Shown here piece by piece: positions 1 to 15,426 of a stretch of DNA of 64,000 bases. The stretch comes from Escherichia coli (GTDB lineage: Bacteria > Pseudomonadota > Gammaproteobacteria > Enterobacterales > Enterobacteriaceae). Position 1 is the stretch's first letter. The number at the start of each line of letters is the position of its first letter. The translations under genes and the position numbers were made by a program. The notes under the pieces were generated by a model. It did no database searches. It saw nothing but the letters and a program-made list of their open reading frames with translations, and had not been told where the DNA came from. The DNA is taken from assembly GCF_003334305.1 (NCBI RefSeq), contig NZ_QOWS01000002.1; one strand, 5' to 3'.

Positions 1-64
1 GTGGCGGCCTCAGTCCGGAACAATTTGAAAACAAGAACCTCGCTTAGGCCTGTGTCCATATTAC

Positions 65-1244
65 GTGGGTAGGATCAATAAGAGTGGTTTGTTTTCAATG
101 GACAGAGTCATTCTTGATGACGTTCTATATTCATTGAGCCTACGATACAGAGTGAATCTATCAGAAAACGTAGTTGAAAAATTTATTGAAAGCGATAGCA
201 AAGAGAAGGTTGAACATCTCAGGAAGGAAATTGCTAGGTTTATCAGGTTTGCTAAAGAAAACTTTGATCTTATCCGTGGAGAGTTTATCGTTTTTGTACG
301 AAGAGAATCCTCTATTAAAGATTCGGAGAGAGCTAATGGAATTTTAGAAGATAACTCTGATACTAATTTCCTATTTCGATATCTCCCCCCTAATATTGCC
401 CGTCTGTATGAAAATAGACTATCCGTACAGAATATAGAACGTCTGGGCAATACAAATAAAATTCGGTTGTTAAACAGAAATGTTTTAACGAATGAAATTA
501 TGTTGAAAATTAAAGACTGCGAAAGCACGTATACAAATGGATATATGTATCAATATATAAATAATGCCATTGATAATGATGATGGCACCATATCTATGGA
601 AATTGTCATGGGAAAGCATAGCGGAAAAAAGTTATGAACGGTGGGTGCAGGGAGCAAAAAATCGTACAGTTCTCTTTCATTATAAAAACATTATTACTGA
701 TCTTAACCAAGCGCATTCATGCAGAGCGTCCCTGGGCGCATATTGCCCATTTCATGGAGAAATTCTTCGTAAACTGGATCAAAGGAATGAAGTTCAGAGG
801 GTTAAACTCTCTATTGACGTTCCATTTCTAGAGGGGCTTACTCCAAGTGAACTCTACAAAATTAGAACTGACTACGAATCGAGTTTTAATGCCTTCCGCT
901 CTGTGCTACGTGAAGCTGCGTATGACATAGAAGCAGAAAGTGACCCATATAAGAGGTAGCTGATAAATCAGCATTTTGTCGAGCGCATATGGGATGAAGG
1001 ATTGACCGATATTGAGCAAAAAATACAGACCTATAAGCGGAAAAGTAATAAAGAACTTTTTCTTAACATTGCGCCATCATTGATAGGTTTTATTGGGGCA
1101 CCAAATCCAGTGTCGTTGGCTACAGGAGCCTTTACGATTCTAAAAGAGGTTTTTAATATAACAAGCCACTCTTCAGAAATAAAGAGTCACCCTTCATATT
1201 TCCTTCTCATGACGTCAAAAGGCAAAAATAAATTTTATGACTGA
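65..1244 (+). pseudogene. Low-GC decayed coding region of unknown function: three collinear ORF segments (65-637; 564-959; 1002-1244)
   Basis: Segments 1 and 2 overlap by 74 nt in different frames near A-runs at ~620-660. Segments 2 and 3 share a frame and are separated only by one TAG at 957-959. Track starts at 65 and 1002 are GTG/TTG. Visibly AT-rich compared with flanking DNA. No recognisable motif. Confidence 0.3.
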
Positions 1245-1330
1245 AGCAGTAGAAAATATTGTGAAAATATATTCACTTAAGCAAAAAGGTTGAGGGGCTG
1301 CCGGATCTGTTATTAACGGGGAGCTAATTA

Positions 1331-1358
1331 CTTTGCCGAGTAAAGCAACTCGGCAAAG
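1331..1358. terminator. Perfect 11-bp stem / 6-nt loop hairpin between convergent genes
   Basis: CTTTGCCGAGT-AAAGCA-ACTCGGCAAAG. No clear U-tract on either strand. Confidence 0.3.
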
Positions 1359-1380
1359 TAGCATAGACTTGAGTGAATTA

Positions 1381-1899
1381 TTAGATTTTAACTAGTTCGC
1401 TAGTCTCTACTGAAGCTCTCAAATTAATGGCAGGCTCCTGTGAGCCAACTCGGTATGTGTAAGACTGAGGGTGATCTCTGGCAATGTCAATGAGATCGAT
1501 TAGAGCCTCAGTTGCTCTCAGAGCTTCATTTGGAAGTTCTCGAGGCTCGAAGCTACTGAGTGTGCCGGGCTTCATATGTGCAATCTGCTCATGCCTAATC
1601 TTTAATACTGGTTCTGCGAGTGCAAGGAACTTTTCAGCTGCCAATTTCACAGCCTCTGGTGAAGCAGAATACGAGCCGCGTTTCAAAAACATTGATACAG
1701 ATCTCACATCTTTCCTTTTATCCGCAAGACGCGCTAAACGGATCACCAACATTTCCAACAATGCATTGAGGGCTACCAACTGATTGGCAAGCTCATATCT
1801 TGTACTGCTATTAGTAAGGCCTTCCATCAACCGCTGATACGTATAGATGGTTGTTAGGATATGCCATGCTTCTGCTTCCATTTCTTCAAGAATCGTCAT
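1381..1899 (-). CDS. Hypothetical 172-aa protein; possible HEPN-like R-x5-H motif (KIRHEQIAH)
   Basis: Clean ORF, convergent with the upstream decayed ORFs. AT-rich promoter-like region 1900-2217 is shared divergently with the GTPase gene. Family assignment is inference only. Confidence 0.5.
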   Translation of the reverse strand: MTILEEMEAEAWHILTTIYTYQRLMEGLTNSSTRYELANQLVALNALLEMLVIRLARLADKRKDVRSVSMFLKRGSYSASPEAVKLAAEKFLALAEPVLKIRHEQIAHMKPGTLSSFEPRELPNEALRATEALIDLIDIARDHPQSYTYRVGSQEPAINLRASVETSELVKI

Positions 1900-2253
1900 A
1901 AATACTCCACAATGGTCTGATAGTTATCATGCAGATATCTAAATAACCAATTTAAACTAATTTTATAATTCAACACGTAGCACATGATACTGAATCACTA
2001 CGTATAAATTAGATACTTTAGGATTTTATTTGGACAAGCCCGCCCCGGAAGACAATTCTACCTTAGTGTATATAAGGACCGCTTATGGCACAGAGCGGAC
2101 TGTCAGATGAGGTTTAGTTCTGTACTAATGAGCCGATACAAATTAGCTGCATATACCTGCATTCCAAATAATTTTAGGCAGATATTATCTCCGTGAGTCC
2201 CCTGCCACCTTTCCGGTGTGCGGGGTTTTGTCTTTTTCACCGGGAATACATGT

Positions 2254-3126
2254 ATGAATCCGTCTGATGCCATTGAGGCAATTGAAAAACCGCTCTCCTC
2301 CCTGCCTTACTCGCTTTCCCGTCACATCCTGGAACATCTGCGCAAACTCACCAGTCACGAACCCGTGATTGGCATTATGGGTAAAAGCGGGGCCGGTAAA
2401 TCCTCACTCTGTAATGCACTGTTTCAGGGGGAGGTCACCCCGGTCAGTGATGTTCACGCCGGCACCCGAGAAGTACGGCGCTTCCGTCTGAGTGGCCATG
2501 GTCACAGCATGGTTATCACTGACCTGCCCGGGGTGGGCGAGAGCCGGGACAGGGATGCAGAGTATGAAGCCCTGTACCGTGACATTCTGCCTGAACTTGA
2601 CCTGGTACTGTGGCTGATTAAAGCCGATGACCGTGCCCTGTCTGTGGATGAGTATTTCTGGCGACACATCCTGCACCGGGGACATCAGCAGGTGCTGTTT
2701 GTGGTGACGCAGGCCGACAAAACGGAGCCCTGCCATGAATGGGATATGGCCGGCATTCAGCCTTCTCCCGCACAGGCACAGAACATTCGGGAGAAAACGG
2801 AGGCGGTATTCCGTCTGTTCCGGCCCGTACGTCCGGTTGTTGCCGTATCGGCCCGCACCGGCTGGGAACTGGATACGCTGGTCAGTGCGCTAATGACAGC
2901 ACTTCCCGACCATGCCGCCAGTCCCCTGATGACCCGCCTGCAGGACGAGCTGCGCACGGAATCTGTCCGCGCTCAGGCCCGTGAACAGTTTACCGGTGCG
3001 GTGGATCGGATATTTGACACGGCGGAGAGCGTCTGTGTTGCCTCTGTTGCCCGTACGGTTCTGCGTGCCGTCCGTGACACGGTGGTCTCTGTTGCCCGCG
3101 CTGTATGGAACTGGATTTTCTTCTGA
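2254..3126 (+). CDS. yeeP: YeeP/YkfA-family P-loop GTPase
   Basis: Walker A GKSGAGKSS near the N-terminus; recognised as the GTPase that precedes flu in CP4-44-like islands. Start moved to ATG 2254 (MNPSDAIEAIEK); track ORF begins at GTG 2218. Confidence 0.8.
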   Translation: MNPSDAIEAIEKPLSSLPYSLSRHILEHLRKLTSHEPVIGIMGKSGAGKSSLCNALFQGEVTPVSDVHAGTREVRRFRLSGHGHSMVITDLPGVGESRDRDAEYEALYRDILPELDLVLWLIKADDRALSVDEYFWRHILHRGHQQVLFVVTQADKTEPCHEWDMAGIQPSPAQAQNIREKTEAVFRLFRPVRPVVAVSARTGWELDTLVSALMTALPDHAASPLMTRLQDELRTESVRAQAREQFTGAVDRIFDTAESVCVASVARTVLRAVRDTVVSVARAVWNWIFF

Positions 3127-14152: not shown

Positions 14153-14350
14153 ATGAAATCATTAACCACAGAAACGGCGCTGGATATTCTGATTGCGTGG
14201 CTGCAGGACAATATTGACTGCGAATCAGGGATTATCTTCGACAACGATGAGGATAAAACGGATTCAGCAGCACTGCTGCCCTGCATTGAACAGGCCAGGG
14301 AAGATATCCGTACCCTGCGCCAACAGCAGCTTCTGCAACAGAACAGGTGA
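14153..14350 (+). CDS. Small hypothetical protein (65 aa)
   Basis: ORF followed by a terminator; weak ribosome-binding site. Confidence 0.3.
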   Translation: MKSLTTETALDILIAWLQDNIDCESGIIFDNDEDKTDSAALLPCIEQAREDIRTLRQQQLLQQNR

Positions 14351-14379
14351 GTCTTACTCACCAGACTTCATTCCACTGA

Positions 14380-14411
14380 CGCCAGCCTGAATACGGCTGG
14401 CGTTTTCGTTT
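14380..14411 (+). terminator. Rho-independent terminator
   Basis: CGCCAGCC-tgaatac-GGCTGGCG followed by TTTTCGTTT. Confidence 0.55.
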
Positions 14412-14431
14412 ATAAACCAAAAGGAAAAACG

Positions 14432-15277
14432 ATGATGTCAGATATCACAATCTCCCGCCCGGAACTGGTCAACGGACATACGGACGTTATCTGCTCAACC
14501 AGTATCCGCCACATTCTGGCTGTACGAAAGAGTGCGCTGCTGCAAATCGACACACTTATCCGGCAACTGGCTGAAATCTCGGTACTGACGGAAAGCATTG
14601 GCGGTAAAACCGCCCGGGACTGGGCCATGAAACAGGATTTTCGCTGCGGCTGCTGGCTCATGGAGAAACCGGAAACCGCAATGAAAGCCATCACCCGCAA
14701 TCTCGATCGCGAAATCTGGCGTGGCCTGATGCAACGTTCCGGGATGCTGTCATTAATGGATGCGCAGGCCCGTGATACATGGTACCGCTCACTGGAGTAC
14801 GATAACTTTCCGGAAATCAGTGAAGCGAACATTTGGAGCACATTTGAGCAACTGCACCAGAATAAGGATGACGTGTTTGAGCGAGGAGTGATCAACGTCT
14901 TCAGAGTGCTGAGCTGGAATTACAAAACCAACTCACCCTGTAAATTTGGCAGTAAAATTATCGTCAACAATCTGGTGAGGTGGGACCGGTGGGGATTTCA
15001 TCTGAACAGCGGGCAACAGGCAGATCGACTTACCGACCTGGAAAGAATGCTGCACCTGTTCAGCGGCAAACCGATCCCCGACAATCGGGAAAACATCACC
15101 ATTCATCTGGATGAGCACATCCAGTCTGTTCAGGGGAAAGAGGACTATGAAGATGAGATGTTCAGTATCAGATACTTTAAGAAGGGCTCCGCGTATATCA
15201 CGTTCAGAAAACCGGAACTGGTTGACCGACTGAATGATATTATTGCAGAACACTATCCTGACATGCTGTCAGTATAG
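14432..15277 (+). CDS. Hypothetical protein, 281 aa (possibly DUF4942-like), last island gene before the tRNA
   Basis: Clean ORF with AGGA ribosome-binding site; family name recalled from memory, not verified. Confidence 0.5.
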   Translation: MMSDITISRPELVNGHTDVICSTSIRHILAVRKSALLQIDTLIRQLAEISVLTESIGGKTARDWAMKQDFRCGCWLMEKPETAMKAITRNLDREIWRGLMQRSGMLSLMDAQARDTWYRSLEYDNFPEISEANIWSTFEQLHQNKDDVFERGVINVFRVLSWNYKTNSPCKFGSKIIVNNLVRWDRWGFHLNSGQQADRLTDLERMLHLFSGKPIPDNRENITIHLDEHIQSVQGKEDYEDEMFSIRYFKKGSAYITFRKPELVDRLNDIIAEHYPDMLSV

Positions 15278-15381
15278 CTTTGCCAGTATGCTTAAAGATC
15301 GGAAATTGTCCGATAAGATGTGATCGCGGCTCATACAAACCGGTTTCAGATGGCATACCCGGTGGCATACTGTCTGGAAGG

Positions 15382-15420
15382 ATAAATAAAAAAGCGCATG
15401 TTAAACAATAACATGCGCTT
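15382..15420 (-). terminator. Rho-independent terminator of serX
   Basis: Perfect 12-bp stem AAGCGCATGTTA/TAACATGCGCTT followed on the minus strand by TTTTTTATTT, directly 3' of the tRNA. Confidence 0.65.
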
Positions 15421-15426
15421 GTAATC

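Follow-up and report, generated by a model that had tools for sequence, protein, structure and literature searches.

The DNA behind serX in an Escherichia coli genome: probably the tRNA-proximal arm of an OI-48/SpLE1/SRL-PAI-family island

Positions 1-15426 of a 64,000-nucleotide stretch of Escherichia coli DNA (contig NZ_QOWS01000002.1 of assembly GCF_003334305.1; hereafter the window) carry a set of CP4-type accessory genes that runs up to the tRNA-Ser(GGA) gene serX. A reading made from the letters alone, here called the original prediction, had taken this segment for a CP4-44-like island abutting the 3' side of serX, which either bore its integrase at the far end or was a degenerate, mosaic remnant. 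We examined the segment against complete genomes of the species and against described islands, and find that it is best explained as the tRNA-proximal, or right, arm of a 70,995-bp island integrated in serX, belonging to the family of OI-43/OI-48 (SpLE1) of O157:H7 and the SRL PAI of Shigella.

When its first 16 kb were compared by megablast with 5,426 complete E. coli genomes, the set on which all genome counts below rest, the window proved to be 100% identical to strain A7 from orangutan faeces (NZ_CP028767.1), starting at record position 1949371; a direct string comparison confirmed the identity over the 19.6 kb of overlap. The RefSeq annotation of the A7 record can therefore be read as annotation of the window, and gene coordinates are given in window numbering as transferred from it. 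The sole tRNA gene detected in the window by ARAGORN is serX, which is intact (88 nt; 15427-15514, minus strand), is also recovered by the Rfam tRNA model and is identical to serX of K-12 and O157. Because serX lies on the minus strand, positions below 15427 are on its 3' side. On its 5' side the annotation gives core backbone, namely ghrA, ycdXYZ, csg, mdo, flg and rne; within this backbone, ymdA (23275-23585) is annotated as frameshifted in A7.

On the 3' side the CP4-type gene set named in the original prediction is borne out by the RefSeq annotation, by profile searches and by collinearity with CP4-44 of K-12. At its left edge the window opens with the last 77 bp of an insertion sequence (IS), IS3 (1-77), which match the end of K-12 IS3D at 100% and in which the annotated transposase ends at 47. 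This tail, cut by the window edge, is an internal, IS-bounded module border and not an end of the island. It is followed by a spacer of low GC content (78-2100; 38-40%), which reaches up to a GTPase gene and holds two orphan open reading frames (ORFs): one on the plus strand (98-637), for which Pfam returned nothing significant, and one on the minus strand (1381-1899) with a weak match to HEPN_AbiU2 (E = 7e-5). Many related islands lack this stretch and match the window by megablast only from about 2080-2160 onward.

All the remaining protein-coding genes of the segment are annotated on the plus strand. The first encodes a YeeP-type GTPase (2254-3126), which is matched by small-GTPase profiles and shares 96% nucleotide identity with K-12 yeeP. 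A leader and regulatory region (3243-3479) then precedes the gene for the Ag43/Cah autotransporter adhesin (3498-6344; full-length match to the NF033177 equivalog, 1979 bits). This region contains a match to the IsrC/IS102 RNA (Rfam RF00124, 64.8 bits) and three GATC sites (3245, 3264 and 3277), and direct sequence comparison with K-12 showed that their close spacing is kept as in the Dam/OxyR phase-variation switch of agn43. Next comes a full-length YeeR-type protein of 838 aa (6465-8981), recognised from the annotation and by blastp against K-12 YeeR, in which a Pfam search gave no domain, and after it a frameshifted IrmA-family pseudogene (9057-9511) split into two ORFs in different frames.

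The block from 9590 to 12796 comprises genes for DUF905 (9590-9823), DUF932 (9923-10741), an antirestriction protein (10833-11318; phrog_10132), a RadC/JAB protein (11334-11810; NF000642/TIGR00608) and DUF987, or YeeT (11873-12094), followed by a hypothetical protein of 227 aa. NCBIfam, PHROGs and PADLOC yielded nothing useful for this last protein, for the 838-aa YeeR-type protein or for the low-GC ORFs. The type IV toxin-antitoxin pair of the YeeU/CbeA antitoxin (12807-13187) and the CbtA toxin (13268-13651), with 88% nucleotide identity to K-12 cbeA-cbtA, is followed by DUF5983, or YeeW (13648-14136), DUF957 (14153-14350) and DUF4942 (14435-15277). The DUF4942 gene is the last of the island and stands in the same order at the right end of OI-48 in O157:H7. 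As the original prediction had noted for the 15 kb nearest the tRNA, no integrase is annotated there, nor anywhere else in the window.

The island meets the tRNA gene in the short interval between the DUF4942 gene and serX. This interval contains, on the minus strand, an intrinsic terminator (15383-15420) made of a hairpin of -17.5 kcal/mol (z = -6.3) and a subsequent U-run, and it ends at the att core, a 14-bp sequence (15427-15440; TGGCGGTGAGGGGG on the plus strand) that corresponds to the last 14 nt of serX and occurs in a single copy in the window by exact-match scan. The original prediction rightly saw a hairpin and U-run here; it assigned them to serX itself, and from this argued that the junction was not a simple reconstitution of the tRNA 3' end. 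The empty site of K-12 has another terminator behind serX, a GCCCGTACTTTCGTACGAGC hairpin with a folding energy of -24.6 kcal/mol, and lacks that of 15383-15420. The latter recurs at the equivalent island junction of O157:H7, with one mismatch in the flank, and in Nissle 1917, where the entire 99-bp junction of island end, terminator, core and serX is identical. Its absence from the empty site, together with its presence in the O157 and Nissle 1917 islands, marks it as island DNA; it is part of the attP flank of the element and has replaced the native terminator, which in A7 is found at the far end of the island beside a displaced 14-bp fragment of the tRNA gene (ser'X). The argument from the terminator is hence reversed: the serX junction is a textbook reconstitution of a tRNA 3' end, with the crossover inside the last 14 nt and with the island supplying both these nucleotides and a replacement terminator. 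Transcription of serX is probably now ended by the terminator of the island.

In A7 the accessory DNA continues for another 55 kb upstream of the window, up to ycdU, the neighbour of serX in K-12, and the island as a whole (record positions 1893802-1964796) measures 70,995 bp with a GC content of 49.1%. The original prediction had advised searching this upstream DNA for a repeat of the serX 3' end and for an integrase; both were found at the ycdU end, as its suggestion of a far-end integrase had anticipated. The integrase is an intact tyrosine recombinase of 400 aa, encoded on the plus strand 55.4 kb upstream of the start of the window, at A7 record positions 1893962-1895164, with the Pfam domains Arm-DNA-bind_3, Phage_int_M and Phage_integrase. 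Its gene starts 160 bp inside the island from the second copy of the core, so that a perfect 14-bp direct repeat of TGGCGGTGAGGGGG, the reverse complement of the last 14 nt of serX, stands at both island ends. Exact copies of the core number three in the region, at record positions 1893607, 1893788 (the ser'X junction) and 1964797 (window 15427). When up to two mismatches were allowed, no further copy was found inside the 71-kb island except for one chance match on the minus strand.

The far end thus reads ycdU, native terminator, one RtT-like unit, TGGCGGTGAGGGGG core and integrase (plus strand). Alignment to the empty site of K-12 (attB), also among the checks proposed by the original prediction, mapped the junction to the 14-bp core on both sides, since the identity switches exactly there. 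At the far end the native sequence downstream of serX lies to the left of the core and island DNA (beginning ACCGCCTGAAATAAATC...) to its right, and at the window junction island DNA (ending ...GCGCTTGTAATC) lies to the left and the body of serX to the right. The DNA beyond the core at record position 1893788 is accordingly island, and not an integrase-free flank common to empty sites.

The interior of the A7 island is rich in copies of IS1, IS3, IS600 and IS200 and in pseudogenes, and it retains an intact regulator of the AlpA family. The cargo includes the fecIRABCDE genes, with fecI frameshifted, an Asp/Glu racemase accompanied by an anaerobic C4-dicarboxylate transporter, a decarboxylase of the Orn/Lys/Arg type together with two antiporters, genes for sugar utilisation, an enterotoxin-like gene and numerous IS copies. 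Between record positions 1886450 and 1947114, that is, in and near the island, broken genes comprise fecI (frameshift), pgaA (internal stop) and dgcT (frameshift). A gene for an archaeo-eukaryotic primase of the IEE/TOTE type survives in A7 as a fragment of 336 bp, and is represented in O157 by a much longer annotated gene, taken as intact, that runs beyond the end of the compared stretch.

The same architecture is found in OI-43/48 of O157:H7 EDL933, equivalent to SpLE1 of the Sakai strain, an island of tellurite resistance and adherence whose two ends we took for comparison from two complete O157:H7 genomes. It is likewise integrated at the final 14 nt of serX/serW and has the same 14-bp direct repeat TGGCGGTGAGGGGG; its integrase sits at the same distal end, that of ycdU, and the integrase of A7 is identical to the Z1814 integrase of O157:H7 in 399 of 400 residues. 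The left arms share the order int, 1818-bp ORF, IS1, AlpA-type helix-turn-helix protein, DUF3987, YfjI and Gp2. The right arm of OI-48 likewise matches that of the window, from the GTPase and Ag43/Cah through DUF932, antirestriction protein, RadC, YeeT, YeeU, CbtA, DUF5983, DUF957 and DUF4942 to the terminator, the core and serX, although the nucleotide identity is only 88-91% over about 9.5 kb, terminator and core included. The two islands differ in their cargo, in that OI-48 has ter, ure and iha, none of which is annotated in the A7 island. Within the right arm, O157 carries genes for a dynamin, RdcB and a patatin where A7 has those for YeeR, IrmA and DUF905. Since the same arms flank different cargo in O157, the CP4-type module belongs to the backbone of the serX island family and is not a separate remnant.

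Published work extends this family to Shigella flexneri. The SRL PAI is a serX-integrated island of about 66 kb that carries fecIRABCDE, an aspartate racemase with DcuA, and an Ag43-type gene (PMC3064760; PMC7545054; PMC8854971). It has the same 14-bp direct repeats as OI-43/48, and the integrases of OI-48 and the SRL PAI are 99% identical (PMC3064760). OI-43 and OI-48 bear their integrase at the ycdU/clpA end, contain a cryptic ser'X and were measured to excise with a frequency of roughly 1e-3 to 1e-4 per cell (PMC3064760). The SRL PAI, too, excises in an integrase-dependent manner (PMC7545054). The fecIRABCDE genes and the racemase/DcuA pair are common to the SRL PAI and the A7 island, a match at the level of annotation only, whereas none of the resistance genes of the 16-kb SRL (tet, cat, oxa-1, aadA1) is annotated in the A7 island. 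Islands with Ag43 in serX are also described as PAI-serX or GEI I in the extraintestinal pathogenic strains CFT073, UTI89 and RS218, and in Nissle 1917 (PMC7545054). The cargo of PAI-serX/GEI I consists of S/F1C fimbriae, salmochelin and microcins, unlike that of the A7 island.

The resemblance to K-12 CP4-44, from which the original prediction took its label, is of another kind. CP4-44 has the order yeeP-flu-yeeR-yeeS-yeeT-cbeA-cbtA-yeeW in common with the window, in collinear blastn blocks of 85-96% nucleotide identity, and it shares the triplet of GATC sites of the Dam/OxyR type and IsrC upstream of Ag43. It lies, however, not at serX but between cobU and tmaR/yeeA, without an integrase or a tRNA junction. 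It also lacks DUF957 and DUF4942, as well as the 3.4 kb equivalent to window 7985-11358, which hold the C-terminus of YeeR, IrmA, DUF905, DUF932, the antirestriction gene and the 5' end of RadC. By blastp, K-12 YeeR (510 aa) corresponds to the first 507 residues of the 838-aa protein, at 98.6% identity. K-12 yeeR is therefore the product of a deletion, and CP4-44 a deleted version of the module seen in the window.

Taken together, the A7 island has a serX 3'-end site next to ycdU, perfect terminal repeats, a distal and near-identical integrase of the P4 family, and conserved arms. We accordingly put the probability that positions 1-15426 are the right arm of a 70,995-bp serX island of the OI-43/OI-48 (SpLE1)/SRL PAI family at roughly 0.93. 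Under this explanation a P4-type tyrosine integrase would have recombined the 14-bp attP core (TGGCGGTGAGGGGG) with its identical counterpart, the final 14 nt of serX. One product would be an intact serX that owes its 3' end and the terminator behind it to the island (window 15383-15440), and the other the displaced 14-bp ser'X fragment and native terminator beside ycdU, 71 kb away.

In elements of the CP4-57/P4 type the integrase gene directly follows the tRNA. In the present family the integrase lies across the core from this usual, tRNA-adjacent place, and comes to be tRNA-distal upon integration; read along the plus strand, the core (the reverse complement of the tRNA end) is followed by int, transcribed away from it. 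It is this distal position of the integrase that leaves the 15 kb beside serX without one. In the circular form that can be deduced from both ends, int would be just 160 bp from attP, whose other flank would be the DUF4942 end with its terminator; the deduced attP would run terminator-core-ACCGCCTGAAAT..., and the restored attB native terminator-core-GGATTCGAACC.

Given the intact integrase, AlpA-type gene and repeats, the A7 island is probably still able to excise, the excision experiments themselves having been made on OI-43/48 and the SRL PAI. This bears on the alternative that the island is a fixed fossil, once mobile and now immobile and scrambled by IS, in which the absence of an integrase near serX reflects decay. 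Such a history would account for the many IS and pseudogenes of the interior, where only a fragment of the IEE-type primase gene is left and both DUF3987 and fecI are disrupted, and for the IS3 and low-GC insert just upstream of the CP4-type module. Both 14-bp cores are nevertheless perfect, the AlpA-type gene is intact, and the integrase is full length and, at 399 of 400 residues, identical to that of O157 islands known to excise. The machinery that defines mobility is therefore not degenerate, and we consider a fixed remnant unlikely. Of the original prediction's phrase "degenerate, mosaic remnant", the word mosaic holds, in view of the IS copies and pseudogenes, and the word remnant does not, as ends, integrase and AlpA-type regulator are intact.

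The serX family island is also to be set against a tandem accretion, in which a 13-kb CP4-44-like module that has lost its own integrase would stand next to the fec- and int-bearing DNA of a second, independent island. An E. coli genome has CP4-type modules in a median of 7 places, beside different integrases, and the module in the window is bounded on its left by IS3 and the low-GC segment, both of which fit such an accretion. Yet no internal att core is present even with two mismatches allowed, OI-48 combines this right arm with the same left arm, integrase included, around a completely different cargo, and the deduced attP has a single core with the DUF4942 end on one side and the integrase end on the other. 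An origin from two islands is thus very improbable.

That the segment is core genome merely resembling an island, for which nothing speaks beyond its presence in many strains, has next to no probability and is refuted by the counts: at least 1476 of the 5426 genomes, K-12 included, have a contiguous ycdU-serX-ghrA, and only 272 contain at least 80% of the 16-kb segment at a single location. The figure of 1476 for the uninterrupted, K-12-type arrangement is a lower bound, since genomes differ in how many of the repeats they have behind serX. The content of the segment is hence not core, and neither an integrase nor a second att repeat lies within the window, findings that leave standing the island character claimed by the original prediction. 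The junction of DUF4942 with serX was found in 1146/5426 genomes and that of ycdU, ser'X and int in 510/5426, and with 272 genomes holding most of it, the segment of the window is neither core nor rare.

Several points weigh against assigning the segment to this family as one intact, mobile element. For the A7 copy, excision and circularisation are inferred only. Its interior is ridden with IS and holds pseudogenes, namely fecI, the remnant of the IEE/TOTE primase and a truncated DUF3987. The likeness to the SRL PAI rests on the published repeat, on the published 99% identity of its integrase to that of OI-48 and on cargo compared at the annotation level. Finally, the 510 as against 1146 genomes with the respective junctions show a right arm to be frequently combined with a different or altered left end, and therefore that the family is modular, not one fixed element.

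The empty site has a further peculiarity in the repeats behind serX. K-12 has three such units of 181 bp in tandem (positions 4023-4565 of the analysed NC_000913.3 stretch); in each, 19 nt from the 3' end of serX are joined to an RtT-like sequence (Rfam RF00391) and to a further copy of the native terminator. There is one such unit in A7 (23607-23801 of the analysed A7 stretch) and none at Z1814 of O157, and up to four RtT features are annotated in one genome. Each unit holds the complete 14-bp att core with five more nucleotides of the tRNA. The units share homology with the rtT repeats behind tyrT/tyrV, where 19 nt of tRNA-Tyr likewise form the end of the repeat. In the literature collection searched, no paper linking serX and RtT was found.

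It is tempting to regard the 181-bp units as footprints of such integrative elements, or as reserve landing pads for them, and the rtT repeats behind tyrT/tyrV could share this origin; we hold this idea to be quite improbable. If it were true, repeats of the RtT type would have been left behind by integration targeted to tRNA genes. Integration of the island into an RtT-like unit instead of serX was looked for with a chimeric query of 174 nt (island end, core and unit), which none of the 5426 genomes matched at 80% coverage or more, and it is rejected for present-day genomes. A more modest proposal is that the A7 island could represent an ancestor-like state of the SRL PAI that is free of resistance genes and still mobile.

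The island family is already well described and the segment lies in a public, annotated genome, so that what is reported here is in essence already known, and its importance beyond correct annotation is small. The segment is better labelled as the right arm of a serX island of the OI-48/SpLE1/SRL-PAI family than as an integrase-less CP4-44-like remnant. A practical lesson for scanning is that in this family the integrase is tRNA-distal and the element brings its own terminator; a missing integrase near a tRNA gene, or a terminator right behind it, is therefore no argument against classical integration into the tRNA 3' end. For the family itself, the picture is that of one backbone with interchangeable cargo, which takes the form of fec and the use of D-aspartate in A7, of ter, ure and iha in O157, and of multiresistance in Shigella.

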